Shown here: one piece after another, positions 8,497 through 59,130 of the stretch
Layout: each line of letters opens with the position of its first letter
Numbering within the stretch: the stretch's first letter is position 1
From: Flaccisagitta enflata
Taxonomy: Eukaryota
Reading direction: 5' to 3'
Assembly (NCBI GenBank): GCA_965153355.1
Contig: OZ231126.1
Coordinates: 20,708,001 to 20,772,000 of the forward strand
DNA: 64,000 nucleotides
Translations under genes and position numbers: made by a program
The notes under the pieces: generated by a model
Database searches by the model: none
What the model saw: only the letters and a program-made list of their open reading frames with translations
Told to the model about the DNA's origin: nothing

Positions 8497-9388
8497 CTGG
8501 AATCTCATGAGGTTTAAAGAAAGTGTTGAGGAGAAAGGATTCTCTTTTTGCTGGTTTCTTCCTCCATTTTCTTTCCTCTCTTTGAGCATATTTCAAACGC
8601 GCCAGCAAAGTTTTATCACTGACGTTTTGACTTGACTGCAACCTTTTTACTGCATCAACTCCCGACTTGAGGTTCATATCTTTTGTAAGTTGAAGAACAT
8701 CCCCATATGTAAGAGTGAGGGTTCCAGAAGTGTGAGCGCAGGACGAACAAGCCGTGATAGAAGGTTGAGCATTGTGAGAAGGGGGAACTGGACTAGTAGA
8801 ACTGGAGCTTGATTCTGCCAACGATTGATTATGGTCTGAAACTCTATCACTCTCTGGATCATCATAAGCAAGGGGTGTTGTCTGCAACGCGAAATTGGGG
8901 CTATGGTCATGAGGGTATTGTGAGGTTGAGGCATTGTCTGAGCAAATGGAGGTTCTTGATATCGATTTTGCTATCGACGAGAACTGAGATGATAAGATCC
9001 TTGGGAGCTAGGATTGTCTTGAGAATCATAGTTTGGTTGGGATGAAGCTGCTATTGATGAGGGCTGAGACGCTTGTAGGGTTTGGGAGCACGGATTGTCC
9101 TTTGACTTGGAGTATGGTTGAGATGAAACTGTTGAGGACTGTGATGGAGGGGAGCTTTGAGAGCAGGGATTGTCCTTTGACTCGGTGTATGGTGGAGATG
9201 AAACTAAGGAGGAGGACTGTGATGGAGGGGAGCAGGGATTGTCCATAGACTCAGAGTATGGTTGAGATAAAACTGTTGATGAGGACTGTGATGAAGGGGA
9301 GCTTTGGGAGCAGGTAATGTCTTGAGACTCATAATACGGTACAGTCGAAGCAAGGGAAGTAATTGAATTGGATGAGCCAACCGTTGAA

Positions 9389-13828: not shown

Positions 13829-14233
13829 TGTAAGGGCCTATATCTTGCGGGCCTTACCTTCTTCCACGTAGGCTTGAACCCGATCGCTTGATTGAGTTCC
13901 TTTGTAACTAATTAACTATCGAATGTTAATTGATATTTGTCTTCTTAGATTGCTTGGTTCTCTGCTATGATCTAGGCAAAGAAATACAAAGTGGAAGGTA
14001 GTTAACGCGGGACGAAAAAGGGCCTCTGTGCCAGATAGCCAGTTCTAGAGTCTTAGTTAAGTATCCAGGCAAATAAGCCACAGGGGGCAAACGTAAGGGC
14101 TACAAAACTAAATGGTACCAAAACATATCAGACACGAACAGTAAGGCATTTAAATTAAAGCAATGGCACATTGAAAATAGTTTTCATAGTCAGGATTCAC
14201 AGTTCTGCATATTGCACAAAATCGTCGCTCATA
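13829..14233 (-). repeat. 3' LTR
   Basis: Plus-strand TGTAAGGGCC...CGCTCATA. A purine-rich tract lies immediately upstream on the minus strand. Confidence 0.96.
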
Positions 14234-14248
14234 TGCTTCTACCCTTTA
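14234..14248 (-). promoter_or_regulatory. Polypurine tract
   Basis: Minus strand AAAGGGTAGAAGCA directly before the 3' LTR. Confidence 0.75.
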
Positions 14249-14292
14249 TAAATTTTTAGTCCCTAAAAACACGGAATCCTCTCCAACAGAAG

Positions 14293-15896
14293 TTAATTTC
14301 GCGAGCGTGATCTCGCACGGGACTTCGCACGTGAGCGAGAACGAGAGGATGAACTTCTCTTCCTTTTCCTACTTCGGCCTTCGCGCGTATCACCGCGGCT
14401 GCGGGGGCGGGATGGCGATGGGTTGGCGTCATGGTACGCGACAGCGTGTCGCATCTCTTCACCGCCAAAACCACCGAATTTGATGCAAAAATCGTAGAGA
14501 AGCGAGGCGTTAATGTCTCGATGACGAAGCGCGAAATAAGAAGGAGAAGTCGTGTCACCAAACAAACAGGCGCGCCAACAAAACGGACCTCCCGTCATGG
14601 CCTCAGACAGACCGGAAACAGTATCGCGGACACTATTTCGAGAGGCAAGATCGACGGCGTCAACGACTGAGGACGGAGACCAATTGTATTTGAAGAAGAG
14701 GAAATCCAACAACGGACCACCGCGATGAACGAACAAAGTCTTATCGGCGGTCTCGCTGGCAAGAACACGAACAAAATCTTCGAGGACGGAATAGGAGAGG
14801 AAGGTTGAGACATGAAACGTTTTTCTCTTTAGGCGGATCGTGAGAAAGTCCATTTCATCGATTCCCGTCATTTTCTTTAGTCGATAGGTGATGGCGAGAA
14901 ATTTGGACTCCCGTAAGCGTTGGCGGAAGTCAACGACGTCAGAGGGAAGGACGAGGATGCGACTTTCGCCGGTTGCCAAATTGTGCAGCGGCCGATTGTC
15001 GTTGCAGCACGGCTCAAATTCACTCGCACTAGACGGGCAAGTGAGGCGAAGGCGGCGTCGCCTTTTGAAATATTCGCCGATGGGTTTGGAACGAGCTGCG
15101 GCTACTTCCGCTACCTCCAACAACAATTCTGCATCGTCGCCGCAGATGGCTGCAATAACGGCGGCGAAGTCAACGATCTCGATTTCACCTTTTTCGTAGA
15201 GGCAAAGCGCTTCATCGACGGCAAAGCGGGCGCGAAGGGGGTAAGCCTCACGAGGGATGGGGACATTGGATTTGGCGCTTAATAGGCGGATAAATTTCCA
15301 AATGCGCCTTTCCGTCCAACGTTCTGTTGCTTTTGAGTCGTCGTAGTCGTTTTGAAAAAAAACGCTCTTCCGCATTTCCGCCAGAATCGCATTTTTATCT
15401 CGCGAATGAACCGCTGCGAGACGCATAACGTGGGCAACTTCGTGAGATCCGAAATTGCGGGCCGTTTCATCAATCATGTTCCCATCATTTGCATCTCCCA
15501 TGACGTTATCGAGCAAAATGATGGGGTCAACGTCAAAGTGTTTCAAATTGACGACGGTGTGGAGGCGGCTCACCCCAAATATCTGTTGGTAAACCATTTC
15601 AAGCACAAAATCATCGATTGCGGTACCTGTGAAGAAGCTTAAGGCCGTGCGACCAAGACGGTACAGCCTGGCTTTGTCGCCGTCGTCGATATCACGGAAA
15701 CGCCGTAACGCGGTAAGGAAGCGTCGTGATGTGACGGGCGTCCGAGTTGACTCAAGGCGCGAGAGGACATCGTAGAAGTCGTCGGGTTTACAGCGAGCTA
15801 GTTTACTCACTACCCGATCAATAAACTGATTTTCACTACGGGTGTCGTTGTCGCTGTTGTTGTTGTTGTCGCTGTTGCTGTTGTTGCTGTTGTTGC

Positions 15897-15927
<31 letters not shown>

Positions 15928-18234
15928 GCTGTTGCTGCTGCTGTTGTTGTTGCTGTTGCTGCTGTTGTTGTTGCTGTTGTTGCTGTTGTTGTTGTTGTTG
16001 TTGTTGCTGTTGTTGCTGTTGCTGCTGCTGTTGTCGTTATTGTTGTTGTGTTCGGCGTTGTTATTGTTGTTGTTGTTTTGACGCCGATAGGTCACTGACC
16101 GACTTCCCGAATCGGAACGACGCGAACCCGAGGCAGAGCCATCAGGCCGAGGATGAGGAGGAGGCATCAACGGAGGAGGATACGTGCCTCTGTCTGCAGA
16201 AACATCATTATAGCGAAAGGCAGAGCGTGAACGGGAAGGGGGCTCATGAAAGGTAGAAGTAAGACGGGAAGAAATAGAATATTGTGAAGAGGAATTACCA
16301 AGCAACGACATTGTCAAAGGTAGAAGCGGTAAAGCAGCAGATTTTACTTTAGACTTATCAGTGGTGAGATGAGAGATAGGATAGGAAACAGGATTTTTGG
16401 AAGAAAGAAGCGATTTATCATTCCCATCAAGGTTTTTAGAATAGAAGGGGGCAACATCAATTTCCTTAACAACTTTCATCGATTCATATTCATCAATGCA
16501 ACCAATTTCACTTTCAGGTTCACTCTCACCCTCATTGACGTTTTTTCCATGAGAGCTATTGCGCAACGCCGAGCGTCTCTGATCCGGACTAGGAGTTGCA
16601 TCCATTCGATTGGCCGAAGATGACGACGAGGGGGAGGCGGAGGGGGACGAGGAAGAGGAATGATGACGCGACACGACCGGCATTTTGGCTTTAACAACCA
16701 AAGAATCTTCTTGAAAGGAAACTTTGCGGCATTCGTCGTCGCTACGATCGCTAAGCTTCCGTTTTGGCGCCGTTTTATCGGTAGACAACGCCGCAGGCGT
16801 TATCTTTTCAGCGGCAGGGATCGCGATAACGACACGACCGAGACAATCGCGATCAGGGGGGGAAGAAGATGAACCGGCGGATTGAGTAGAGGGAAGGGGA
16901 AGAAATTGAGAAGAGGCCGGCACGTAAGTTTCTTGCATGATGGTGCGTTTGCTATCCCATTGAGAGCGAAGAATGGCGCAAACGATTTGTTTTTCTCTTC
17001 TTCTAATCATCTCTTTCTCTTCAAAGGTGGCGACCTTGTCGCGGACGTCGTCCCATTTTGCGAATACGCCATCGACAGTCTCACGTTGTTTGGGGGTTAA
17101 TTCTGATGGGGGATCGCAGAAGGGGGAATTGCCGGCTCTCATGTCCATCAAATCACAAAGAGCTTTGACCATTTCGGTAGCAGAGTGGCTGTCAAAACTC
17201 AATTCCTCGTCGCAGACAAGCGCAAAGATCGAAGGGCAGACACTAATCATGTCTGCCAAGCCGGTGGCAGTGTCAAGTCCAATCAACGCATCGTGACCGC
17301 AGTAGCTCAATGCTACACCGGAGAGGCGGCCTTTAATTTCGCCGTAATCGGCCAAATGATTGCGAAGTTTGGGTCGTTTGTCGACGACGACATTTTCTTT
17401 GACGAATTCATACTGGAATTTGAGAGATGTGGCGCCGAGGATACCGCGATTTTTGCTTTCATGACAAGATGCCATAAAAACGCGGAGCGCTTCTGGGCCA
17501 CGGGCGAAGTTGGAGAGGAAGGCATATTGGAGGCCAGTGTCAATGAAACGAACATTTTCGATTTGGTTTTCCTCAAGTCCGAGGGACTTAAGGAGAGAAG
17601 GAAAATCGCCGGCAATCGCGTTTCCTGCGACGATAATGTTCCAATGGGTGATTACTTTTATGATGATTTCGTAATCACCTTCGTTTTGGAGACTGGTGGG
17701 GGGGCCTTTTGGGAGTCTTTTTAGTCCACTTCGCATTTGCAAGACGATGACTTTTTTGTCGTTATTGTGACGATACGCGAGCTGGATAGTCGCGCCTTTG
17801 TCTTCCTGATCGAGGCCGACGAAAATAGGTTTGGGGGACTTGTCGGCGATTTGGAGAAGGGGCGTGAGGTGTTGTTCGGCGGCATCATACGAACGGACAT
17901 GAACAATTTCTTTTGGGGTCAGTTTATCAAGAGTCACGCCGGGGGTCTTCAACTGACGTTTAAATTCGTAATCGAAATATTGACCTTCGTCGATTGTGGG
18001 GGAGGGCCTAGACTGACCGCGGTACGGGGGAACGTCCTCCATACAATATCGGATTTTGTCTTCCAAATGAGACTCGACCGGAATGACAAGCGCGGCACCA
18101 TCTTCGTAAGGATTCGGGACGGGCGTGGGCAGTTTAAATTGAGTCCCGTCAGGATAGAAATGACGTAGCCACGTCGCTTCTTCATCCCGCTTTTTCTGTT
18201 TGTCTGTTCTGTTTGTCTCTTTCTTTTTGGGCAT
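14293..18234 (-). CDS. ORF3, about 1313 aa: DEDDy 3'-5' exonuclease domain, S/N-rich linker, helical region, degenerate second exonuclease-like domain and RS tail
   Basis: Uninterrupted ORF between pol and the PPT, first ATG at 18234. ExoI FVGLDQE..ATIQLA, ExoII AGNAIAGDF, RFIDT, SLK, ExoIII YCGHDA. No signal peptide or transmembrane segment is evident, so it is not env. Confidence 0.88.
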
Positions 18235-19530
18235 TATCAACTTGGATAGAATCCAAATTGAGGACGCGGAAAAGAGTATATATGTAAGAATTGAACTCCT
18301 GACTAAGAGTTTGAAAGCAAAATGGGGTAAAGTTACGCGGGGAAAAGAGCGTGTTTCATTTCAAATAAACTTTTCATTTCAAATCATATCATTCATTTCA
18401 AAACAGAGCCACTTTAATTTATAACGAATCTTCATGGATATTCCGGAATTTCAGAGTGTTTCCATTAAATAACTCTATAAATGAAAAGGAGAAATTGGTA
18501 ATTAATTCATTTGAAGGCTTCTTTGCATCAAGAAATCGTCCCTTGTGATTCGACCTTCCACCAGAGTTGACAGCCTATTATAAAAGATGAGAAATGTTGT
18601 ACCATCTTGATTGATAAAAGGATTCGATATGTGCAAATACCAAATCATTTCCATATGATAAAATGAATCATCCAATCACTCTTCATTCACTGCGCTTCTT
18701 CATGTTCTTCTAACATACCCAATCCAAATTCCATATTTCCAAGTTGGCGTTTTGCAGTAAGGATTACCTCGTATCCAAGCGTGGTAACATCAATGTTCGG
18801 TTTTCCCGCTCAAGTTCAAGCAGGGGGTAAATCTTTTAAACGACTACCTAAAACATCTGGTAAATGGTAGAGATTAAGGTACCTGAAGGAAAAACCTACT
18901 AAAGGTTAGTAAGTTACCAGTAATTGAAATCTCGAGATGGCCAATTCTGGATGTAAAGTTGTTGCGCAACGTAACTTGAGATGGTGTTTGTGTCCAGGTT
19001 TTCTTCATATTGAATCTTGGAACTTGATGCCCATCGTGATGTTACTAACTAGCCCAGGAAAAGGAATAGGAAGGGCACAGGAACCCCACCATAGCTTGGG
19101 GATTCCGGAGGCCCAAACATGGCATGAACAGACAATGAACATATTTACAAAGTACCATGTGAACAATGATACAGATTGATGTCAGAGGGGGGGGGGCCAA
19201 TGTAAACGACTGAAGAACAGCCATTCAGACGCTGATATGGAACAATCGTGGGGGGGGGTAACAATCATGGGGGTAACGACAAATCCCGTGACAAAATCCA
19301 CGGGGGGGGGGGGGAAACATTTTAAATCCAAATGGCAGTGAAGAGGAACAACGAAGGGGGGGGGGGGGATATTGAGCATCGAGACAGAAGCCATAAATGC
19401 AATAACAGAGTAAGAGTAGCCAAGAAAGCAGGGGGGGGGTGTACTATGCTAGATGCAAATAATACGATTAACGAGCGAAAATTGATAGAAAAACCATAAC
19501 GTGAGAGTTAAAGCTATTCAGAAGAACAAC

Positions 19531-22500
19531 TTAATCCTTTGGAGTGCTTGCGGTTTGAGGTTGAGGTTGCGGATTGGGCGCCGAACTGCTTGGAGCGGCA
19601 GCCTGAGGATCTCCGCTTTGCCAGAAATAGCTGAAGGGGCGTAGTAGGAGTGAAGATTGATTTGCGCCTTGCGTGCTTTCCGGGGTGCTGATTGCGGATG
19701 ATGTGGACGGTTGTTGGGCGACCCTGATGTTTTGAATATCGTCTTTGTTTGGGACGAACGGCTCCTCTTCTTCCTCGAACACGTCCATGCTTGCGATTCG
19801 TTCCCGAATGAGATCTGCTGAACTGAAGGAAGCGAAAACGTCAGGAAGAGATTCGTCGCTTTCGGTCTCCTGCGATGTCGTGCGACGGTTCATCGATCTA
19901 ACGCGTTGCCCAACTTTCACGACAGCGTCTTTGGCTTCGGACCTTCGCTGCTCTTCCCGATTCTGTTGGAAACGTGTTCTCATGGAAGGAGCTGGCGGAG
20001 GACGGCTTACCGATTTTGGGCGAACCGCTTTTGGAGGTGGGTGGGACATCTCGGCAGAAGAAGAGGCTGGCGGCGTTTTGAGTGGGGCTGCATCTTCCTC
20101 CACTGGGATCAATTCCGGCGTTGTTCTTTTCCTCCTGTTGCGGGTTGTGGTTGCCGGCAAGTCGTCTGTTGAGGGTGGGACGCTGGCTTGATCGGCATCC
20201 GTACGCGAAGAAAGCGTTGGGCTGCTACCTGTTGGATCAATGGGCTCGGATTTAGGGCTTACCTTAATTAAGAGTTCGGATGGCGATGCCATCGAAGCAG
20301 CCGTAGGAGAGAGTGCCGCATAGAGTGGGGCAGCGGGGGCAGATTCGTCCGGAGACGAGTCTGGAGAAGTTTCATCAGGGGGAGCAAGTAGGGCGGAGTT
20401 GCCCGTTGCGGAAGCGAGCTGACCAGAGTGGCCCGATGTGGTGACTGGGAGCTGCGACGCTGGAGGGAGCGGCAACACTTGCGGAGGTTGTGTTGTTGGC
20501 GGAGATGGCGTCGTGGGTGGAGGCGGCGTTGCTGGTGGCGGAGGAGTCGGCGTTGCCGCAGGCAATACCGGGGCTGGCGTGAGGCTTTGGAGCGTTGCTG
20601 GGATAAGAGCCAGGGTGCGTCCTCTCGTTGGTCTGAGAATTGGTTTTAGGTTGGCCAGTGGGAGGTCAACAGTGGTGGTTGGAGGCGCATCTGGATCATC
20701 GGAATATGAGGGACCGATAGTCTTTCCCTGGTCTTCCGCTTCGGCCTTCTTAAGTTGCTCGTAGTTGCGATTGACCAGCTTCCCATCTGTCCTTTCGCAG
20801 ACATACGTGGTGCCAGGATTGCCTGAAGGGTCACGTCGACGTCTTTGGACCTTGAGGGGGCCGGACCATTTTGACTGAAGTTTGTGACGCGTGCCATCTG
20901 GCACACGTTCGTAGACGCGGTCGCCTTCCTCAAGCGGCGTATGTTTCACCTTCCGGTTGTACGCCTCTACATCTTTGACCCGTTGGGAATCAATGCGCTT
21001 TCGAGCTTCTTCGTGGATTTCCTCAGTTCGTTTTCGGACCTTTTCGATGTAGGCTTTGCTGTCTGGGTCCCTGACCGTAGAGGTCTCTGCGGGAACCGCA
21101 AAGGTAGGAAGCGGAGGGTCCCTTCCGTACATGAGGAAATAGGGCGTCATCTTGCTGTTGTATCGTGGGGTGTTGTTGTAGGACCATTCGACGTAAGGGA
21201 GATGCTCGACCCAGGAGTGTCCGTATTGAATGAGCCGCTTTCTCAAGTCTTTAATCAAGGTTCGATTGAACCTTTCAACGTGACCTTGCGACTGGGGTCG
21301 GTAGGGGATGCTGGTGCGTTTTTGTGCTCCCTTGACCTTGCACATATCCTTCAACAGGTCAGAGTCAAATTCGCCTCCATTGTCCGACGTGAGTAGGCGA
21401 GGTGGCCCGATGATGCATGTGAGGTCCTCAAAAGCGCGGCATACACCTCTGGTGTGTTTGTCCTTCAGTTTGAAGAGCTTCACGTATCCAGAGAACACGT
21501 CGATGAAGACCAAGACATGATGGAATCCAAGGGAAGCCGTAGGCAAGGAGATCAGATCGCAGACCACATGGTCCCAGACGTTTTCGGCTTTAACCGGGAT
21601 ACGGGGCGTGCGGTTTGCAGGAAGGGGTTCGCGCTCTTGGTCACAAACCTTGCAGTTCTTGATGAACCTCCTGATGTCCTTGCTGAGGGATGGCCACGTA
21701 GCGTACCTGTTCACCATGAGGAGCATTTTGTCATGAGATGGGTGTCCAGCCATGTATTCGCCGTGGAGATCTTCCAGGACCGATTTTGTCATGGATGGAG
21801 GGATGACGGCTTGGAGGATGTCAAGATGACTGCATTCGCTGTAGGCCTTCTTGTAAAGAATGCCATTTTGGAGAATGAACCACCTTCGATTGGAAGAGTA
21901 CCATCCATCTGGGAAGTCGTCTGGGATACGTTTGCGAGCTCTAAGGAAGCTTTTGACGGTAGAGATTGTTGCGTCGTCGTTCTGAGCTTTGCGTAACATA
22001 TCTTCATCTTCCTCGAACGCATTGAAGCGGACTGCTGAGAATTGGTCCTCGCACGTAATGGCAAGGAATGCAAACTCGTCACTGTCCTCGGCGATTTCGT
22101 CATCGTCATCGCCACGACGACTCATCGCGTCTGCGTCGGCATGAGACTTGCCTTCCTTGTAGATCAACTCAAAGTCGTAGGAGTTGAGTTCGATTGTCCA
22201 CCGGGTTCGTCTTCCAGTGGGGTCCTTCCTTGAGTCGATCTTCTTCCACGCTAATAGGGGGCGATGGTCGGTTATGGCAAGGAATGGGGCGTGGCGCAAG
22301 TAATGAGCATTCGCGCGGACCGCGCAAAGGAGAGCAAAGTACTCACGGTCGTAAGTTGACCAATTTTGCTGAGGACGGCTCAACTTCTTAGAACCATATG
22401 AGATGACTTTCTCTTTGCCGTCGACCTTTTGGGTGAGTACATATCCGATGGCGGTCAGGGATGCGTCGGATTTAATGATGAAAGGCTTGGCGAAGTCTGG

Positions 22501-24696
22501 GTAGCACATAACGTTGTTGGAAGTCAGGTAGTCCCTCAAGGTTTCGAAGGCGTGTTGGTGAATGCTGGTCCACTTCCATTCCACATCCTCCTTGGTGAGC
22601 TCTGTGAGGGGTTGGGCGATGTCACTATAGCCTTTGATGAAGTGGCGATAGTAGCCGGTAAGACCAAGGAAAGTCCTTAGCCTCTTGATGTTTTCGGGCG
22701 TCTTCCATGATTTGATCTTGTCCATGTTGGCCGGATCAGGACCAATCCCGTACTTGCTAAGTTTGTGCCCTAGGCACACAACAGAGTCTTGAGCGATGTG
22801 GCATTTGGACGGGTTGAGCTTCAACCCGGCCTTTTCCAGCGCCGTGAGGACTAGGTCCAAGTGGTGAAGATGATCTTCCATGTTGCTGTCGGCGACCAAA
22901 ATATCGTCGAGGTAGGAGATCACATGTTGAGAAGGGAGTCCCCGCAGCACGAGTTGCATGAGCGCCGTTAGGTAGCTTGGAGAGTTTTTTGCGCCCATAG
23001 GGGCCACTAAATATTCCAAGTGCATCGTCTCCGTCGAAAACGCGAAATATTTGCAGTCCTCGGGAGCAATCGGGATCTGCCAAAAGCCTTTGGTCAGATC
23101 GAGAGAGCTGAAGATGCGGGGATCCTTGAGACGTTGGATGCTGTCCTCAATTCGGGGAAGTGGGTAGACGACTTTATCGCATCTCTCGTTCACCTTGCGG
23201 AAGTCTGTTAGGAAACGGAAGCCTCCAAACTTCTTTTTGGCGAGGAGGATAGGCGCAGAGTAGGGGCTTGTAGACGGACGGACTAGTCCATCTGCCATCA
23301 TTTCAAACGCCTGCTTGTCGATAGCTTCCCGAGCTTCTGGGGTGGTTCGGTAAGGGGAGACAGAAATAGGAGGGCCAGGTGGATTCTTCATGTGTGCGCG
23401 GTATTGGATCACAGATGTCTTTCCGTAATCTCGGTCGTGTTGGCTGAAGGCACCCTCATGTTTCACTTCCAAGAGATTCTTGAGTTGGTCTTTGTAAGGT
23501 TTTGCTTCCTCCGAGATGGTTGAGTAATCGATGCTGAGGGGTTTAGCACCAGGCGGTATTCTCTTTCTTCTTGCCCGTGGTGGAGGGGTCCAACCACTTC
23601 GTGGAGGGGGGGTGTCTTGTGGCTGTGGGGGATCGAGAATGTCCACTTGGTGGGCTGCGAGCGTTTGGGAATTGGGAGGTCTGTCGCAGACAATTTCCTC
23701 CAGTTCTTCATCATCACTATCGGCTTCAGAGGAGTTGCCAGATTCGTAAGCCGAATCATCGCTAACATAATCATTGACCATCTCTGTCTTGTAGCAATAT
23801 TTCTCAAGCTCAAAGGGGTCAAAGAATTCTGCATAACCCAAGACGCGACCGGCTTCCAATTTGACATCGGAGTCTGTGCAGTTCATGAGTTCAGTGAGGA
23901 ACATGCAGTCCCTGACATCGGAAATCGCTCTGCATGTGGCAGCTTGTTCGCCTTGGTCTACAAAGGGCTCCGTGGCCACCATTGTTGATGCTGCTTTGAT
24001 GTGGTCTTTGTCTGCCATGAGTTCGACCATCTTGTGCATTTTGCTGTTGGCTGGGATAGTGACGTCTTCGTGAATTCGGTAGAAGCAGCCGGAGAGAACT
24101 GTACTGTCTTTGACCAGGGGAGTGGGGGCCCAGTCTCTGAATTCCAACAGACCCTCAACAGTGTTGAGAGTGGCTTTGAATTTTGAGAAAAAGTCCCAAC
24201 CAAGGATGACGGGCTGAATGAGACCTCTGACAACACGACAATTGATTGCCATGTAATTGTTGTTAATTCGGAATGGGACATTGACGATACCGATGGTTAA
24301 GACTTTTGACCCGTTGATTGCTGTGCCGCGAGTTGTCAGATTTCTGTAGGGGCGTTTTCTCAGGGCAGGGCTATCTCTGAAGAAATCTTCCGAGATAGTG
24401 CAACGGCTCGAGCCCGTGTCGCCAAGGGCAAGGACCTTTTGGTACTTGCCATCAAGCCCTGTCTTTATGGAGATCGAGAATTCGGCCTTCCACTGGGGTC
24501 TGTAGTCGCCTGGAGGGGGATCTGGGGATTCGGGGTAAGTGTGGGATTCTGGAGTATCCGGTATCAAGTGGGGATCAGGGGGTTTTGGAAAATCTGCTGA
24601 GTTGAGGGAGGGGGCGAGTTTTGCAGTTCCGATCTCTGTGCGCCCCTTGACAGAGTCGGGAGCTAGTTTTCCGGATTCCGACCTTGGCGGGCCAGT
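19531..24696 (-). CDS. pol: Pol polyprotein (aspartic protease, RT, RNase H, integrase, long P/S/T-rich tail)
   Basis: Protease LGDTGS. RT SLDLTKGFWQI and YLDDILV. RNase H SDAS...RE...TDH...DAMSR. Integrase HGEYMAGH...CKVC, CDL, SDNGGEF, GHVERFN and a GPY/F-like KWSGPL. No stops. Confidence 0.97.
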   Translation of the reverse strand, partial: TGPPRSESGKLAPDSVKGRTEIGTAKLAPSLNSADFPKPPDPHLIPDTPESHTYPESPDPPPGDYRPQWKAEFSISIKTGLDGKYQKVLALGDTGSSRCTISEDFFRDSPALRKRPYRNLTTRGTAINGSKVLTIGIVNVPFRINNNYMAINCRVVRGLIQPVILGWDFFSKFKATLNTVEGLLEFRDWAPTPLVKDSTVLSGCFYRIHEDVTIPANSKMHKMVELMADKDHIKAASTMVATEPFVDQGEQAATCRAISDVRDCMFLTELMNCTDSDVKLEAGRVLGYAEFFDPFELEKYCYKTEMVNDYVSDDSAYESGNSSEADSDDEELEEIVCDRPPNSQTLAAHQVDILDPPQPQDTPPPRSGWTPPPRARRKRIPPGAKPLSIDYSTISEEAKPYKDQLKNLLEVKHEGAFSQHDRDYGKTSVIQYRAHMKNPPGPPISVSPYRTTPEAREAIDKQAFEMMADGLVRPSTSPYSAPILLAKKKFGGFRFLTDFRKVNERCDKVVYPLPRIEDSIQRLKDPRIFSSLDLTKGFWQIPIAPEDCKYFAFSTETMHLEYLVAPMGAKNSPSYLTALMQLVLRGLPSQHVISYLDDILVADSNMEDHLHHLDLVLTALEKAGLKLNPSKCHIAQDSVVCLGHKLSKYGIGPDPANMDKIKSWKTPENIKRLRTFLGLTGYYRHFIKGYSDIAQPLTELTKEDVEWKWTSIHQHAFETLRDYLTSNNVMCYPDFAKPFIIKSDASLTAIGYVLTQKVDGKEKVISYGSKKLSRPQQNWSTYDREYFALLCAVRANAHYLRHAPFLAITDHRPLLAWKKIDSRKDPTGRRTRWTIELNSYDFELIYKEGKSHADADAMSRRGDDDDEIAEDSDEFAFLAITCEDQFSAVRFNAFEEDEDMLRKAQNDDATISTVKSFLRARKRIPDDFPDGWYSSNRRWFILQNGILYKKAYSECSHLDILQAVIPPSMTKSVLEDLHGEYMAGHPSHDKMLLMVNRYATWPSLSKDIRRFIKNCKVCDQEREPLPANRTPRIPVKAENVWDHVVCDLISLPTASLGFHHVLVFIDVFSGYVKLFKLKDKHTRGVCRAFEDLTCIIGPPRLLTSDNGGEFDSDLLKDMCKVKGAQKRTSIPYRPQSQGHVERFNRTLIKDLRKRLIQYGHSWVEHLPYVEWSYNNTPRYNSKMTPYFLMYGRDPPLPTFAVPAETSTVRDPDSKAYIEKVRKRTEEIHEEARKRIDSQRVKDVEAYNRKVKHTPLEEGDRVYERVPDGTRHKLQSKWSGPLKVQRRRRDPSGNPGTTYVCERTDGKLVNRNYEQLKKAEAEDQGKTIGPSYSDDPDAPPTTTVDLPLANLKPILRPTRGRTLALIPATLQSLTPAPVLPAATPTPPPPATPPPPTTPSPPTTQPPQVLPLPPASQLPVTTSGHSGQLASATGNSALLAPPDETSPDSSPDESAPAAPLYAALSPTAASMASPSELLIKVSPKSEPIDPTGSSPTLSSRTDADQASVPPSTDDLPATTTRNRRKRTTPELIPVEEDAAPLKTPPASSSAEMSHPPPKAVRPKSVSRPPPAPSMRTRFQQNREEQRRSEAKDAVVKVGQRVRSMNRRTTSQETESDESLPDVFASFSSADLIRERIASMDVFEEEEEPFVPNKDDIQNIRVAQQPSTSSAISTPESTQGANQSSLLLRPFSYFWQSGDPQAAAPSSSAPNPQPQPQTASTPKD
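24611..24672 (-). promoter_or_regulatory. -1 programmed ribosomal frameshift signal (slippery heptamer plus H-type pseudoknot)
   Basis: G GAA AAC (24672-24666) precedes the gag TAG. After a 6-nt spacer, stem 1 is CCGACTCTGT/ACAGAGATCGG. Loop GGGGCG pairs with downstream CGCCCC (24616-24611). The pol frame is open from 24696 and is -1 relative to gag. Confidence 0.85.
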
Positions 24697-26120
24697 CTAG
24701 ACTCCTTCTTTTGGAGAAGTGAGAGCAGGCGGGCATCCAGGGTGGCATCATCCTCGCTGTCGTTGCTGTATTCATCGGCAGTTTGGATGGCATTGTAATT
24801 GCGATCACCGCGATTTCTATCGCGACCTTGGTTGCGATTGCGATCGTAGTTGCGACCACCGTAATTGCGGTCATCGCTTGGAGTCCTTGGGGTTGGGGAC
24901 CTTCCTCTGCCGGAGTAGCGATCATCGCGTTGGCGACCATTGCTGTAGTCCCTACGGTTGTCCCTGCCGCTCCGATTTTGCTCGTCTCGGTCACGACGGG
25001 AATTGCGATCACGGTTGGGATCTTGGTCACGGCGTGGGGCTTCGCGACGATAATCTCTGTCACGGCTGAAGCTCGGCTCTCGACGAGACTCTTGATCACG
25101 GCGGTAATCTCTGTCGCGACCATAGCTTTGGTCACGGCGGTTGCCGTTGCGATCCCGGTTGTATTGGCGGTCTCTGCTGGGGCTTCCTGAGCTATCGCGG
25201 TAGCGGTCCCTTGAGTACCGGTTATAACCATCACCGGTTGAGCGGCCACGGTCGTCGGAAGATTTTCCTTGCATGGACATATTTCTCACTTCTGTACCAA
25301 GTTGTGCAATAGCGAGTTCGAGGCCGCCGATGCGGTCGTCGGCCATGGCTAGGCCAGTGAAGGCAACTTGTTTGGGCTCCTTTATTGGTTCCTTGTCTCT
25401 CTGGGTCATTTTCACTCTTGAGGCAAGTTCCATGGCGTTTTCAATGGTGCGATCTTGCTTCGTCAGGCTCAAGTCAATGTAGTCCTGATAGGGGGTTTCA
25501 GGGAGAGACTCCCTAAACCTGAAGAAGTACGCCCATTTCTTGCCGTTGTCGTCGAGCTCTTTTTCGTAGTTGTCGACCGCACGTTTGACACGAGTTGCCA
25601 AGGCCTGGAAACTTTCCTTTCCATCCCAGACAATTTGGGTCTTCATGGCCTTCCATTTGTAGACCTCGTTGGGGTCAACAAGGCGGTCCTTGAGCTGAGC
25701 TTTGGTTTGGTCGTAAGTGAGAGTCGATGGGATTTGTTTGTAGACAGCTCGAGCTTCTGAGTCAAGCTTGATGGGGAGCCAGCTTTTGCATAGTTGCCAC
25801 TTCCTATCATCAGAGGAAGGGTTCATTGCCAGTTTGACAGCGTTTTCGAAGATCTCGAACCACTCGTCTAAGTCATCTACTCCTGAGCGGAAAGAGTCCA
25901 CTGGGATGGAGCTTGCTCTCTCGTTCGTTACCGCCATGGTCGCGGCAAGGGCAGCGGCAGTTGCGGCGTTGGCAGCTGCAGCGGCGTCTCCCTGGTTGGC
26001 GTTTTGGTGGTTGTTGGCGTTGTCGTTGCCAACCATGGGGATTGGATTGTGGGGAGGTTGAGCACCCAGCTGGATCGCGTTTGGGACGGAGGGAATTGTT
26101 GGGGGAAGAGGCGGGGGCAT
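24663..26120 (-). CDS. gag: Gag, 485 aa (capsid-like core, R/D/S-rich basic C-terminus, no CCHC knuckle)
   Basis: Long ORF immediately upstream of pol. Helical capsid-like region includes an MHR-like ESFQALATRVKRAV. It ends at the slippery site. Confidence 0.9.
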   Translation of the reverse strand: MPPPLPPTIPSVPNAIQLGAQPPHNPIPMVGNDNANNHQNANQGDAAAAANAATAAALAATMAVTNERASSIPVDSFRSGVDDLDEWFEIFENAVKLAMNPSSDDRKWQLCKSWLPIKLDSEARAVYKQIPSTLTYDQTKAQLKDRLVDPNEVYKWKAMKTQIVWDGKESFQALATRVKRAVDNYEKELDDNGKKWAYFFRFRESLPETPYQDYIDLSLTKQDRTIENAMELASRVKMTQRDKEPIKEPKQVAFTGLAMADDRIGGLELAIAQLGTEVRNMSMQGKSSDDRGRSTGDGYNRYSRDRYRDSSGSPSRDRQYNRDRNGNRRDQSYGRDRDYRRDQESRREPSFSRDRDYRREAPRRDQDPNRDRNSRRDRDEQNRSGRDNRRDYSNGRQRDDRYSGRGRSPTPRTPSDDRNYGGRNYDRNRNQGRDRNRGDRNYNAIQTADEYSNDSEDDATLDARLLSLLQKKESRLARQGRNPEN

Positions 26121-26225
26121 TGGACAGAGTGCAACTCTATCTTAGTTGGATAATGGAGGTGTTGATGACAAGGTGTTTAAGGCGAAGGAGGAGAGATGGA
26201 CAGCGCTGGGTATGATTATGGGTTG

Positions 26226-26516
26226 TTATTGTGGCGCGGCAAACCCAGCAAGGAGCAAGGACCTCAGCGGAAGAAAGTCAGTTTCGATGATGTAATCGTT
26301 TTCGCTAAGCAAAGTGGAGTTGGAGTCGAATGCGTATTTGAGAGCGGCCAACTCGCGCTTGAGATTAGACCAAGTGCTTTGGGCTGGGGTGAGTAACTTG
26401 TGGCCGCTGTTGACGATTTGTTCCTCCCCGTTGACGATTCTCAAGATGTTGAATCCTATGGCAGCGGGTGACGAGTAGAGGCGAACGATGTATTCGGGGG
26501 GGTTAGCTTCAGCCAT
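26226..26516 (-). CDS. Accessory ORF-B, 96 aa: stand-alone RNase H-like protein, probably catalytically dead
   Basis: From ATG 26516, YIVRLYSSPAAIGFNILRIVNGEEQIVNSGHKLLTPAQSTWSNLKRELAALKYAF...IETDFLPL aligns without gaps to Pol RNase H FIIKSDASLTAIGYVLTQKVDGKEKVISYGSKKLSRPQQNWSTYDREYFALLCAV...AITDHRPL. Confidence 0.85.
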   Translation of the reverse strand: MAEANPPEYIVRLYSSPAAIGFNILRIVNGEEQIVNSGHKLLTPAQSTWSNLKRELAALKYAFDSNSTLLSENDYIIETDFLPLRSLLLAGFAAPQ

Positions 26517-26629
26517 TTTGAGGCGAGTTATTAGAAATGAAGGGGAGTTGGATTCAATGACAATAAAGGACGAGGAGGCCACAATAGAAAATTACAGCAA
26601 AACAAGGCGAAGAGGAACTGTACACCGAT

Positions 26630-27310
26630 TTACACTTGTTGCGATGTTGGCAACGCGAAGGCGAAGATCCTGTTGAAGACTGCCTGGGCGGTTCCCTCCA
26701 CAAAGATGCGAAACTGCGACCTTGCCGGTGCTTCAAACACGTAGTCCCAGGCTTGGAGAACCAACTCCTCGGAGTCGAACAATGGGGTGCTTGTCAGCTT
26801 CTGGACAAAGGCAAGCCACAGCTGATCCGCGTTACCGTTTGGGTTGTCTTCTTTCACGACCAGGATGGCGCAAAAGATGAGTCGGCTGGTGCGTTCGACG
26901 TGGTCACGGCGTCTTGAGGAGTATCTTCCGTGATGGCTGGGGGCCCACAGGGAATTGGGAGTGGCACTGGGACTAGGCGAAGCCTGATCCCTGGGAAGCC
27001 AGTTCCTGTATTCGGCTCTTGGCCTTCTTGGAGGTGAAGGGGAGGCGAGAGAGACAGCGTTTCGGAACCGGTTAGTCCACTCGTCAAAGTCGTCACGCGA
27101 GAGGGGTCTCGAATTGTTGAGAAGACTGGCGACCAGAGGGCTGTGTTCTGCTCCCTGATGGTGGGCCTCAAAACGATATTGCGGGTGTGCAGCTGGGGAT
27201 CTTCGGAATCTGCGACTTGGGCTTGCTGAAGCACGGTTTGGAGCGGAGTTGGATTCAGGAGATGAGGATCTTCGTTGGGATCTTCGGTGTCTTCGATAAG
27301 GAGGGTCCAT
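26630..27310 (-). CDS. Accessory ORF-A, 226 aa: R/S/P-rich N-terminus, Gag-capsid-like segment and helical C-terminus
   Basis: ATG-initiated ORF inside the element. DDFDEWTNRFRNAVSLA...YRNWLP aligns with the element's own Gag DDLDEWFEIFENAVKLA...CKSWLP. Confidence 0.75.
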   Translation of the reverse strand: MDPPYRRHRRSQRRSSSPESNSAPNRASASPSRRFRRSPAAHPQYRFEAHHQGAEHSPLVASLLNNSRPLSRDDFDEWTNRFRNAVSLASPSPPRRPRAEYRNWLPRDQASPSPSATPNSLWAPSHHGRYSSRRRDHVERTSRLIFCAILVVKEDNPNGNADQLWLAFVQKLTSTPLFDSEELVLQAWDYVFEAPARSQFRIFVEGTAQAVFNRIFAFALPTSQQV

Positions 27311-28088
27311 CTAGTCAGATAGACACCAGCTAGGAGGCTAATGTTTCTTATCGTAAAGTTGAGTTGAGCGGTCTCTGTGGCTTAAGTGCCGGGATAAATG
27401 ATACGGATACGGATAAATGATACGATTAAGGGTGATTGGTAAAGGGGCTCTCACTTTGGCGAATAGCATCGGTTATTGAAGAGATAGATTTGCGTAGGAA
27501 CTCCAACCTATGGCAAAACCCAGCGCACGCCTTGAACACGGGTCCGTGAGCAGGTCCAAGGAATGACCACTACATGAGAAGTGCGTCCAGGCTTTGTTCT
27601 CTACTGGAAGTAAAAACGCGTACCTGATCAGGATTTTAGCCAATCAAACTCCGTCAACATTCACAGACTTGTTGAGCGGGGCTTGCGCGAACTGCCACGA
27701 AGAGGGGTTGCCTCATACGCTTGTTAAGGATCCCAAGCGGAAGTCGAAACCGAGCCGGCGCTTGCGGAAGGACTGTTGGACGAATCTAACCAGTATACCC
27801 AGCTTAAAAACGGACTGCGAAAGATCCACAATCCCTATACCACACACTAAGCGCTGAACTCGTCCAAGACAGCAGTTTCGGTTCCACCAGAGACCAGGAA
27901 ATTAGTGAAAGGGGGGAAGAAATCCGTCGTCTTGGCAGCCAGATCTGCAACCAGGATGGCCTATTCAAGGCAGAAAGGCTGTTGCATGAGAAATTACAAT
28001 TCCAGAGGAGTTCCTCAGAAACAAGAGAAGCAAAGGATATGAGAGCCACCTGAGAGAACTGGTAGATCTCTGGAACGGTTCTAAAAAT

Positions 28089-28100
28089 GCCGATGCACCA
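28089..28100 (-). promoter_or_regulatory. Primer-binding site, tRNA-Gly(GCC)
   Basis: Minus strand TGGTGCATCGGC, 2 nt after the 5' LTR. It is complementary to the ...GCCGATGCA-CCA 3' end of invertebrate tRNA-Gly(GCC), recalled from memory. Confidence 0.85.
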
Positions 28101-28102
28101 GT

Positions 28103-28507
28103 TGTAAGAGCCTATATCTTGCGGGCCTTACCTTCTTCCACGTAGGCTTGAACCCGATCGCTTGATTGAGTTCCTTTGTAACTAATTAACTATCGAATGT
28201 TAATTGATATTTGTCTTCTTAGATTGCTTGGTTCTCTGCTATGATCTAGGCAAAGAAATACAAAGTGGAAGGTAGTTAACGCGGGACGAAAAAGGGCCTC
28301 TGTGCCAGATAGCCAGTTCTAGAGTCTTAGTTAAGTATCCAGGCAAATAAGCCACAGGGGGCAAACGTAAGGGCTACAAAACTAAATGGTACCAAAACAT
28401 ATCAGACACGAACAGTAAGGCATTTAAATTAAAGCAATGGCACATTGAAAATAGTTTTCATAGTCAGGATTCACAGTTCTGCATATTGCACAAAATCGTC
28501 GCTCATA
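28103..28507 (-). repeat. 5' LTR
   Basis: Plus-strand TGTAAGAGCC...CGCTCATA. Matches 13829-14233 except one A/G at position 7. PBS abuts it. Confidence 0.96.
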
Positions 28508-32080: not shown

Positions 32081-33360
32081 AAAAATCTTGAAAGAGAATG
32101 GGTCCGCGACTGGGGTCAATCAGCGTTGTCAAACGGTGTTGAAATACGGCGTTGTAAAACGGCGTTGTAATACGGCGTTGTAATACGGCGTTGTAATACA
32201 GCGTTGTAAAACAGCGTTGTAAAACGGTGTTGTAAAACAGCATTATAAGGCGTTTGTAAAACGGCGTTTGTAAACCGGTCGTAGCAAGTTTTAATCAAAT
32301 TGGTGGAAAACTACCGAAATAATGCAACTTTTTTAATTTTAAGAAGGTAGGGTGGTTGAGTAATAAACTGGTTTTGCCGGTTAGCATGCTAAAATCGTGT
32401 TAAATCACTTACAAACATCGAGTTATTTCATTTTGAATCTATATACCAAGTTTTGACCAAATTGGTTGAAAATGATGAAGTTTTGCACAAATATCACTTT
32501 TAGGGTGGTAGGCTGGCCGGCTGGTAGGCCAGTTAGCATGACAAAATCTTTATAAATCAAATTCATATGTTGAGTCCTTCCATTTAGGGACTACATACCA
32601 AGTTTCAACCAAATTGGTTGAAAAATGCCGAAGTTATGCACGTTTTTCACTTTTAGGCTGGAAGGCTAGTTGGGTGGTAGGCTGGTTTGGCTGGTTAGCA
32701 TGCTAAAATCTTTACAATTCAAATACATATATTGAGTCTTTCCATTTTGAGACTTCATACCAAGTTTCAACCAAATTGGTTGAAAAATACCCAAGTTATG
32801 CACATTTTTCACTTTTAGGCTGGTAGGCTAATTGGGTGGTAGGCTGGTTTGGCTGGTTAGCATGCTAAAATCTTTACAATTCAAATACATATGTTGAGTC
32901 CTTCCATTTAAAGACTACATACCAAGTTTTAACAAAATCAGTTGAGAAATAAAAAAGTTATGCACGTTTTTCACTTTTAGGCTGGTAGGCTGGTTGGGTG
33001 GTAGGCCGATATGGCCAGTTAAAAAGCTAAAATCTGTACAATTCAAATACATATGTTGAGTCCTTCCATTTAGAGACTACATACCAAGTTTCAACCAAAT
33101 TGGTTGAAAAGTACGGAAGTTATGCACGTTTTTCACTTTTAGGCTGGTAGGCTGGTTGGGCCGGTTGGGTGGGTCGGATTATAATATACGCATAGGATGT
33201 AAAGCGGCTTACTCTGGTTCAACTTCCCTCCAAATATGAAGCAAATTGGTCAAGGCATTCAAAAGTTAGCCCATTTTTAAAAGTGTGGACAACAACGACA
33301 ACACCCACCCGCCTCGAATTATAGTCCGCGTCGGAATGGTATTCCGTCGCGGACAAAAAA
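32081..33360 (+). mobile_element. Helentron/DINE-1-like non-autonomous element with internal 14-bp and about 140-bp tandem repeats
   Basis: 5' GTCCGCGAC is inverted to 3' GTCGCGGAC. 3' hairpin GTCCGCGTCGGAAT-GGT-ATTCCGTCGCGGAC. Internal tandem units. Confidence 0.6.
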
Positions 33361-57709: not shown

Positions 57710-59130
57710 CAAAGAGTCGATGGCTGCCCAAAAAGTTGATGGCCGCCTGATGAGTCAATGGCAGCCTGATGAGTCGATGGCAGCCTGATGAGCCAATGGC
57801 CGCTCGAGGAGTCATCGACCGCTCGAGGAGTTGATGGCCGCCCGAGGAGTCGATGGCCGCCCAAGGAGTTGATGGCCGCCCGAGGAGTCGATGGCCGCCC
57901 GAGGAGTCGATGGCCGCCCGAGGATTCGATGGCCGCCCGAGGAGTCGATGGCCGCCCGAGGAGTCGATGGCCGCCCGAGGAGTCGATGGCCGCCCGAGGA
58001 GTCGATGGCCGCCAGAGGAGTCGATCACCACCGAAAGAGTCGTCACCACCCGAAGAGTCGATCACCGCCCGAAGAGTCGATCACCGCCCGAAGAGTCGAT
58101 CACCGCCCGAAGAGTCGATCACCGCCCGAAGAGTCGATCACCGCCCGAAGAGTCGATCACCGCCCGAAGAGTCGATCACCGCCCGAAGAGTCGATCACCG
58201 CCCGAAGAGTCGATCACCGCCCGAAGAGTCGATCACCGCCCGAAGAGTCGATCACCGCCCGAAGAGTCGGGGGGGCGAGAGAGTCGACCGCCCGAAGAGT
58301 CGATCACCGCCCGAAGAGTCGATCACCGCCCGAAGAGTCGATCACCGCCCAAAGAGTCGATCACCGCCCGAAGAGTCGATGGCCGCCCGAAGAGTCGATC
58401 ACCGCCCGAAGAGTCGATCACCGCCCAAAGAGTCGATCACCGCCCGAAGAGTCGATCACCGCCCGAAGAGTCGATCACCGCCCGAAGAGTCGATCACCGC
58501 CCGAAGAGTCGATCACCGCCCGAAGAGTCGATCACCGCCCGAAGAGTCGATCACCGCCCGAAGAGTCGATCACCGCCCGAAGAGTCGATCACCGCCCGAA
58601 GAGTCGATCACCGCCCGAAGAGTCGATCACCGCCCGAAGGGTCGATCACCGCCCGAAGAGTCGATCACCGCCCGAAGAGTCGATCACCGCCCGAAGAGTC
58701 GATCACCGCCCGAAGAGTCGATCACCGCCCGAAGAGTCGATAATCGCTCGAAGAGTCGATAATCGCTCGAAGAGTCGATCACCGCTTGAAGAGTCAATCA
58801 CCGCTTGAAGAGTCAATCACTGCCTGATGAGTTGATGGTCGCCCAAAGAGTCGATGGCCGCCTGTAGAGTCAATGGCCGCCTGTAGTCAATGGCCGCCTG
58901 TAGAGTCAATGGCCGCCTGTAGAGTCAATGGCCGCCTGTAGAGTCAATGGCCCCCTGTAGAGTTAATGGCCGCCTGTAGAGTCAATGGCCGCCTGTAGAG
59001 TCAATGGCCGCCTGTAGAGTCAATGGCCGCCTGAAGAGTCAATGGCCGCCCGAGGAGTCAATCACCGCCCAAGGAGTCAATCACCGCCCGAGGAGTCAAA
59101 CACCGCCTGAGGAGTCGATCACCACCTGAA
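57710..59130. repeat. 19-bp GC-rich minisatellite (GAAGAGTCGATCACCGCCC)n
   Basis: Period of 19, with a homogeneous centre and variant flanks. Confidence 0.95.

Follow-up and report, generated by a model that had tools for sequence, protein, structure and literature searches.

Why would a retrotransposon carry a gene with two exonuclease-like domains, one of which appears to have given up its catalytic residues? The question is raised by a 64,000-nt stretch of contig OZ231126.1 from Flaccisagitta enflata (positions 20,708,001 to 20,772,000; hereafter the window), in which an intact Ty3/gypsy long terminal repeat (LTR) element spans positions 13829-28507 on the minus strand. Downstream of pol, the element carries a third gene, open reading frame 3 (ORF3). 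An initial annotation, made from the letters of the window, had proposed that ORF3 ends in a second, catalytically dead copy of an exonuclease-like domain at 14478-14961. We analysed the protein by structure prediction, fold searches and family alignments. We propose that ORF3 is two-headed, with an active DEDDy exonuclease at its N-terminus and a pseudo-exonuclease module at its C-terminus that would bind nucleic acid without cutting it and would target or anchor the active head. In our judgement this explanation has an even chance of being correct.

Layout of ORF3

ORF3 is the listed minus-strand frame 14293-18240 (1315 aa), whose first ATG is aa 3 and which is open back to position 18360. 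All six peptides quoted in the initial annotation lie in this frame, and the interval 14478-14961 corresponds by arithmetic to aa 1094-1254. Pfam searches gave no family at E ≤ 10 for aa 1-410 and aa 805-1315, and none at E ≤ 0.01 for the whole 1315 aa. The following parts were delineated.

14293-18234, minus strand: ORF3 from the first ATG through the stop, the third gene of the element, downstream of pol (ORF list)
17197-17934, minus strand: N-terminal DEDDy 3'-5' exonuclease domain, aa 103-348 (AlphaFold2 model, match to the WRN exonuclease, residues D144, E146, D212, Y313 and D317)
15832-16980, minus strand: low-complexity linker with an Asn/Ser tract, aa 421-803 (composition; short-period repeats at 15801-16104)
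15019-15831, minus strand: all-helical domain, aa 804-1074 (AlphaFold2 model, one rigid unit with the pseudo-exonuclease)
14461-15018, minus strand: pseudo-exonuclease domain with an N-terminal Cys/His strap, aa 1075-1260 (AlphaFold2 model, superposition, replaced catalytic columns)
14296-14418, minus strand: Arg/Ser/Lys-rich C-terminal tail, aa 1275-1315 (read from the sequence)

The C-terminal module has a predicted DnaQ-like exonuclease fold

We modelled aa 804-1274 with AlphaFold2, using a 107-sequence alignment (A1). The predicted local distance difference test score (pLDDT) of the model was 96.2 and its predicted TM-score (pTM) 0.88, with pLDDT mostly above 94 in the helical part. Model residues 1-283 (aa 804-1086) form sixteen helices, in keeping with the earlier description of about 280 aa of helical-looking sequence ahead of the dead domain. 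These are followed by a strand, a helix, three strands, a helix, a strand, a helix, a strand and further helices, the order found in RNase D-like exonucleases. Judged by structure, the alpha/beta domain covers model residues 277-457 (aa 1080-1260, window 14461-15003) and is thus wider than 14478-14961; the conserved strap ahead of it reaches back to aa 1075 (window 15018).

A Foldseek search of the PDB gave 23 matches at E ≤ 1e-3, the best being Trypanosoma brucei RNase D (4e-5). The 22 of these 23 that were listed were all RNase D, Nibbler, Rrp6, RICE1 (5v5f, 1vk0), EXD1, NrnC/diDNase or Egalitarian; lower down came the WRN exonuclease and Pol theta, at E values of 2.5e-3 to 5.5e-3. Superpositions with VIA-align, in which the best Z for models with no true match is typically 7-8, gave the following values (rmsd, root-mean-square deviation).

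2fbx, WRN exonuclease: Z 17.7, rmsd 2.9 Å, 174 residues aligned, 8% identity
1yt3, E. coli RNase D: Z 17.2, rmsd 2.6 Å, 164 residues aligned, 10% identity
7jw6, Drosophila Nibbler EXO domain: Z 17.2, rmsd 2.7 Å, 175 residues aligned, 12% identity
5fis, EXD1: Z 15.5, rmsd 3.3 Å, 171 residues aligned, 12% identity

A Foldseek-independent structural scan of 48,161 representative PDB chains yielded 60 with Z ≥ 8. The best 50 of these 60, judged by their titles and by family knowledge, are all DnaQ-like exonucleases or polymerases with such a domain. The Z values were graded: 14-17.5 for DEDDy enzymes, 12-16.7 for the exonucleases of family-A polymerases, 10.6-11.3 for CAF1/PARN, 9-10.4 for family-B polymerases and 9.3 for Pol III epsilon. 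From the model we assign aa 1080-1260 to the DnaQ-like, DEDDy 3'-5' exonuclease fold. The initial annotation was to be abandoned if the predicted fold was unrelated to DnaQ-like exonucleases; since the best 50 matches all have that fold, with Nibbler itself among the close superpositions, its proposal stands in this respect.

The likeness is visible in structure and was not picked up by sequence searches. A phmmer search of the PDB with the C-terminal part found nothing, and the 107-sequence profile matched seven unrelated PDB chains at E 0.38-5.3, with no exonuclease among them. The C-terminal domain was also not recognised by the curated Pfam family that we take to be the 3'-5' exonuclease family, nor by any other family at E ≤ 10. 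For the helical part (aa 804-1086) an Atlas feature search gave no usable match, and in structural searches with the whole module the exonuclease domain filled every match list. Foldseek also aligned the module with Egalitarian over 388-428 columns (rmsd about 26), which was rejected as a likeness of the helical part because the N-terminal parts of Egalitarian are LOTUS-like domains.

The catalytic residues of the C-terminal domain are replaced across the family

We located the catalytic positions along three lines that agree with each other: the alignment to RNase D, secondary-structure offsets, and the HMMER alignment to Nibbler. The alignment with 1yt3 is nearly gapless (model 288-454 against chain 1-168, 164 residues aligned). 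The RNase D catalytic residues, which we take to be D28, E30, Y151, D155 and D85, place the first four at T1118, R1120, H1240 and N1244, and D85 near G1175. Counted from the beginning of the last long helix, Y313 and D317 of the N-terminal domain are offset by 5 and 9 residues, and equal offsets in the C-terminal model again lead to H1240 and N1244. When the HMMER family profile was compared with Nibbler (a sub-threshold match), a conserved Ala, A1116, fell two residues ahead of the ExoI Asp, and the ExoI Glu was matched by the conserved His/Arg column.

Hence, in ORF3, the Asp-x-Glu of ExoI, which closes strand 1, is replaced by T1118 and R1120, and the Tyr-x3-Asp of ExoIII, in the last long helix, by H1240 and N1244. 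The same was observed over the whole family of 89 members (denominators vary by column), which bears out the proposal that the acidic residues of this copy had been exchanged. At the ExoI Glu column no member is acidic (0/81) and 68 of 81 have Lys, Arg or His. At the ExoIII Tyr column all 85 residues are His, and no member has the Tyr. Acidic residues occur at the ExoI Asp column in 23 of 89 members and at the ExoIII Asp column in 8 of 85; taking the ExoI Asp, ExoI Glu and ExoIII Asp together, each of the 89 sequences has at most one. The ExoII Asp is expected at aa 1175-1178 (G, P, L, L), where the helix that follows strand 4 begins, a placement uncertain by 1-4 residues. As modelled, this second DEDDy-fold domain cannot perform two-metal catalysis.

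A conserved Cys/His set and basic residues in place of the acidic pocket

The loss of the acids is accompanied by the strong conservation of other residues, although overall identity within the family is 20-30%. C1079 is kept in 77 of 79 members, H1086 in 78 of 78, C1221 in 86 of 87 and H1240 in 85 of 85. The full Cys-His-Cys-His quartet is found in 72 of 89 rows; the remainder consists of 14 gapped rows and three with a substitution. Basic residues prevail at the column of R1223 (83/87), at column 1136 (66/89) and at column 1120 (68/81). The median isoelectric point (pI) of the pseudo-exonuclease domain is 9.0, with values above 8 in 60 of 81 members, as compared to medians of 6.3 for the N-terminal domain and 6.6 for the helical domain.

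Taken together, the conserved quartet, the basic columns and the high pI indicate, at the level of sequence, that the acidic metal-binding pocket gave way to a conserved pocket of basic, Cys and His residues; the site looks rebuilt rather than decayed. The designation of this copy as dead thus holds for its lost catalytic acids and falls short of describing a domain with near-invariant Cys-His-Cys-His and basic residues.

The N-terminal head retains a complete DEDDy site

The AlphaFold2 model of aa 91-350 had a pLDDT of 90.1. It superposed best on the mouse WRN exonuclease (2e6l; Z 19.8, rmsd 2.1, 18% identity), and it also matched Nibbler (Z 17.0) and RNase D (Z 16.6). The profile of this domain family gave weak matches at ExoIII to Nibbler (E 0.006), WRN (0.038) and EXD2 (0.048). 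D144, E146, D212, Y313 and D317 are all present. Among 12 sequences, D144 and E146 are invariant, and conservation is at least 90% at Y313 and D317; the ExoII residue (column of D212) is Asp in 8 of 12 and Glu in 4 of 12. By its model, the N-terminal head is a complete and apparently working DEDDy 3'-5' exonuclease.

Homologues retain both heads

An HMMER search with aa 804-1274 recovered 168 cluster representatives at E ≤ 1e-3. Of these, 74 pass E ≤ 1e-10 and 29 pass E ≤ 1e-30, and many of the 168 can be aligned over the entire 471 residues. Among 32 homologues scanned, 30 had no Pfam family; the other two had unrelated matches: P0099 to RRM_1 and RRM_5, and P0121 to Borrelia_P83, a low-complexity match whose 19.8 bits fall short of the cut-off of 33.6 bits. 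Nine homologues are at least 1000 aa long (P0008, P0011, P0012, P0018, P0021, P0049, P0121, P0125 and P0128). They have the same layout as ORF3, and their N-terminal domains align with ORF3 aa 100-345. Whether homologues keep both domains had been posed as a check of the two-domain proposal, and all nine full-length proteins do.

The ORF3 linker (about 380 aa) aligns poorly among the homologues. Most of the long ones end, like ORF3, in a basic tail, which in ORF3 may by its composition act as a nuclear localisation signal or as an RNA contact. P0099 (742 aa) matches the C-terminal module partially and has an RRM fragment at its N-terminus; in this protein the module may have been joined to another partner.

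Two further observations concern length variation in ORF3. The Asn/Ser-coding tract at 15801-16104, in the linker, has a periodicity of 9-15 nt; reads seem to be cut there and the depth drops. It is likely a site of length variation between copies of the element. One read contig lacks 18 nt near 18200, in the N-terminus of ORF3, and represents an in-frame length variant among the element copies.

A proposed function of the C-terminal module and its alternatives

Since the catalytic acids are gone and conserved Cys, His and basic residues stand in their place, the C-terminal domain most likely binds rather than cuts. In the explanation that we prefer, the low-complexity linker of about 380 aa would tether the N-terminal exonuclease to a rigid C-terminal module (aa 804-1260). 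The former active-site pocket of this module would have turned from acidic and metal-binding to basic, and its conservation pattern suggests that it is probably stabilised by a metal on the Cys-His-Cys-His set. The ligand of the module would be nucleic acid, with RNA or a 3' end as the most likely target, which it would leave uncut. Much as EXD1, Maelstrom and Egalitarian bind RNA through their inactive DEDD domains, it may then select substrates for, or anchor, the active exonuclease to which it is tethered.

Several points weigh against this explanation. Binding, metal and inactivity are predictions drawn from sequence, models and analogy, and the Cys-His-Cys-His set is read from alignment columns rather than from spatial geometry. 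The His at the Tyr position, together with the conserved His, Cys and Arg residues, could support another chemistry. The RNase D residue numbers that entered the mapping are those we presume to be catalytic. At ExoII, D1179 of ORF3 and its closest relatives could occupy the position; among 88 members, this column holds an acidic residue in 22 and a basic one in 42. The two heads also show no recognisable kinship in sequence: when one was compared with the other, the lowest BLASTP E value was 0.13 and the hhalign probability 0.1-0.3%. Because neither method relates them, there is no sign of a recent internal duplication, and the pairing of heads that are unrelated in sequence would be ancient within the family. 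The initial idea of an active and a dead exonuclease in one chain is therefore upheld by the fold, the lost acids and the intact N-terminal domain, but not by any sequence likeness between the two heads.

The residues that are set against the preferred explanation could instead mean that the C-terminal domain is still an enzyme, which would use its invariant His, Cys and Arg in another mechanism, for example as a metal-independent or single-zinc nuclease or as a phosphatase on RNA ends. The near-invariance of H1086, H1240, C1079, C1221 and R1223 is stronger than a purely structural role usually needs, H1240 sits exactly at the catalytic Tyr position, and 23 of 89 members have an acidic residue at the first ExoI position. 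A Cys-His-Cys-His set is, however, a typical structural zinc ligand set, and no member has more than one acidic residue of the DEDDy site. Documented DEDD folds with these losses are moreover inactive, as described for Bombyx Maelstrom (PMC4408791) and for EXD1 (cited in PMC5408684). We consider the enzymatic reading distinctly unlikely; if true, ORF3 would carry two different nucleolytic activities. Unlikely as well, in our estimate, is a role as a protein adaptor or decoy, in which the module would be an intramolecular or oligomeric partner of the N-terminal exonuclease, or else a mimic of the host's DEDDy proteins in small-RNA pathways that titrates the partners of Nibbler, Mut-7 or EXD1. 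Such a role would fit the presence of Nibbler and EXD1 among the closest folds, the large surfaces offered by the helical and pseudo-exonuclease parts as one rigid unit (pTM 0.88), and the co-occurrence of both heads in all nine full-length homologues. The domain is nevertheless basic in charge and in its pocket columns, which favours nucleic acid over protein, and the identity to host factors in structural alignments is 8-14%, with no likeness in sequence.

That the domain is a functionless, decaying relic of a duplicated exonuclease would account for its lost catalytic residues and for the blindness of Pfam and PDB sequence searches to it. This reading is contradicted by the conservation of the domain: it is retained in 168 diverged cluster representatives, among which some residues are invariant although overall identity is 20-30%. 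The model is also extremely confident, and the host element is young and intact; we regard a relic as scarcely credible. At the other extreme, ORF3 could be a counter-silencing machine, in which a remodelled pseudo-exonuclease, stabilised by zinc and reversed in charge, works with its helical domain to capture small RNAs of the host, precursors of these, or proteins that partner Nibbler-, Mut-7- or EXD1-type factors, and passes 3' ends to the active nuclease to be destroyed. We hold this to be very unlikely. If true, a retroelement would carry a suppressor of the piRNA/siRNA defence built from an active and a dead copy of the host pathway's own fold.

The host element and other features of the window

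The element is bounded by LTRs of 405 nt each that have one mismatch between the copies, and GTGG is found on both outer flanks. The insertion is young, as the LTRs differ at one position, and intact. Its other parts are as follows.

13829-14233, minus strand: 3' LTR, 405 nt, direct repeat with 28103-28507
28103-28507, minus strand: 5' LTR, 405 nt, direct repeat with 13829-14233
19531-24567, minus strand: pol (protease, reverse transcriptase, RNase H, integrase), a 1678-aa ORF assigned by Pfam
24663-26120, minus strand: gag-position ORF, assigned by position only

The Pfam matches of pol are RVT_1 (7.5e-31), RT_RNaseH_2 (6e-26), Integrase_H2C2 (6.7e-15) and rve (3.5e-9); that of the aspartic protease is sub-threshold. 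No Pfam match to a dUTPase was found in pol at E ≤ 0.01. The gag-position ORF has neither a Pfam match nor a CCHC knuckle. The name ORF3 is apt because the frame is the third gene of the element after the gag-position ORF and pol. DNA of the element is multi-copy in one organism and is present also in runs labelled marine metagenome; a search of metagenome contigs with the single ORF3 protein found no relative.

Upstream of the gag-position ORF lies a 226-aa ORF (26630-27310, minus strand), which shares with it, as seen by eye, a short stretch of the type DDxDEW..F.NAV.LA...WLP. The 226-aa ORF likewise gave no Pfam match and no CCHC knuckle; judging from the shared stretch, the element may carry two gag-like ORFs (26630-27310 and 24663-26120). 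The C-terminal ~390 aa of pol past the integrase (window 19531-20560, minus strand) are rich in Pro, Ser and Thr and apparently disordered. Between pol and ORF3 there are 1.3 kb with no long ORFs; this gap could hold a promoter or a splice acceptor for ORF3.

Elsewhere in the window, a tandem array at 32213-33150 consists of units of about 162 nt, with four copies that are 88-100% alike. Another array, at 9055-9357, has units of about 75 nt and overlaps with a minus-strand ORF rich in Ser and Pro. At 57788-58808 (plus strand), three ORFs, each about 300 aa long, overlap one another in separate reading frames of a single strand, with a GC content of 0.53 and a strong AT skew; this region is probably low-complexity or repeat sequence rather than three genes.

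Comparison with known systems

Accessory genes of retrotransposons are poorly understood, and the published exonuclease ORF3s have no assigned role. One of the closest precedents is that of bdelloid rotifers, in which RNase D-like DEDDy ORF3s are described in the Juno and Vesta LTR elements and the Athena/Terminon retroelements (Rodriguez, Kenefick and Arkhipova 2017, PMC5408684). According to that paper, 'DEDD is changed to DEED' in the rotifer ORFs and catalysis is unproven; the Vesta2 and Vesta5 ORFs have a Cys-His-Cys motif, and RNA is bound by Maelstrom and EXD1, two DEDD derivatives without activity. Like Juno, Vesta and Athena, the element studied here has a DEDDy ORF3 with intact catalytic residues downstream of pol in a gypsy-like LTR element and, as in the rotifer ORF3s, the ExoII Asp has become Glu in part of the family (4/12). 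Unlike Juno, Vesta and TelKA, it has no dUTPase match in pol and no gag zinc knuckle. The available text of PMC5408684 mentions a single exonuclease domain, with no inactive copy beside it, whereas the ORF3 described here has both. A literature search found no second, inactive exonuclease domain in a retroelement ORF in the texts covered; one may be implicit in the Terminon work (PMC5850863) or in the figures of PMC5408684. Retroelement ORF3s with an exonuclease domain are known, as are pseudo-exonucleases that bind RNA; their combination in one transposon protein, in which the active site of a DEDDy-class domain has switched to an invariant Cys/His set, appears to be undescribed in the literature searched. 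The two-headed architecture turns the vague idea of '3'-end processing' into testable biochemistry.

Among host proteins, Nibbler, Mut-7 and EXD3 resemble the C-terminal module in having a helical region followed by the EXO fold; the EXO domain of Nibbler is catalytically active, unlike the predicted state of the one in ORF3. EXD1 (5fis, Z 15.5) and the Egalitarian (Egl) ExoHD (9rvy_D, Z 12.9) have the same fold, which in these proteins has an inactive or dispensable catalytic site and serves RNA binding or an adaptor function. The Egl ExoHD is reported to bind stem-loops via basic clusters about 15 Å from the putative catalytic residues, and one Egl-bound stem-loop comes from the I-factor retrotransposon (PMC13186709). 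EXD1 and Egl are host proteins with a single exonuclease-like domain, whereas the pseudo-domain of ORF3 is transposon-encoded and paired with an active-looking DEDDy domain.

The closest parallel in mechanism is Maelstrom, which was absent among the best 50 matches listed in the fold searches. Bombyx Maelstrom has a DEDD fold with lost catalytic residues and a structural zinc on an ECHC set, is inactive as a nuclease and binds single-stranded RNA (PMC4408791), and an 'active-site switch' from DEDDh to ECHC/EHHCHC was put forward for the MAEL domain (PMC2628886). The C-terminal domain of ORF3 shares with MAEL the DnaQ-like fold, the loss of the catalytic acids, the gain of a conserved Cys/His set and a link to transposon biology. 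It differs in being closest to the DEDDy class (WRN, RNase D and Nibbler) rather than to the DEDDh class of Maelstrom, and in the composition of the set, which is Cys-His-Cys-His with one His at the former catalytic Tyr and a putative metal. To the active-site switch that has so far been described for Maelstrom, the ORF3 domain would add an independent case from the DEDDy class.

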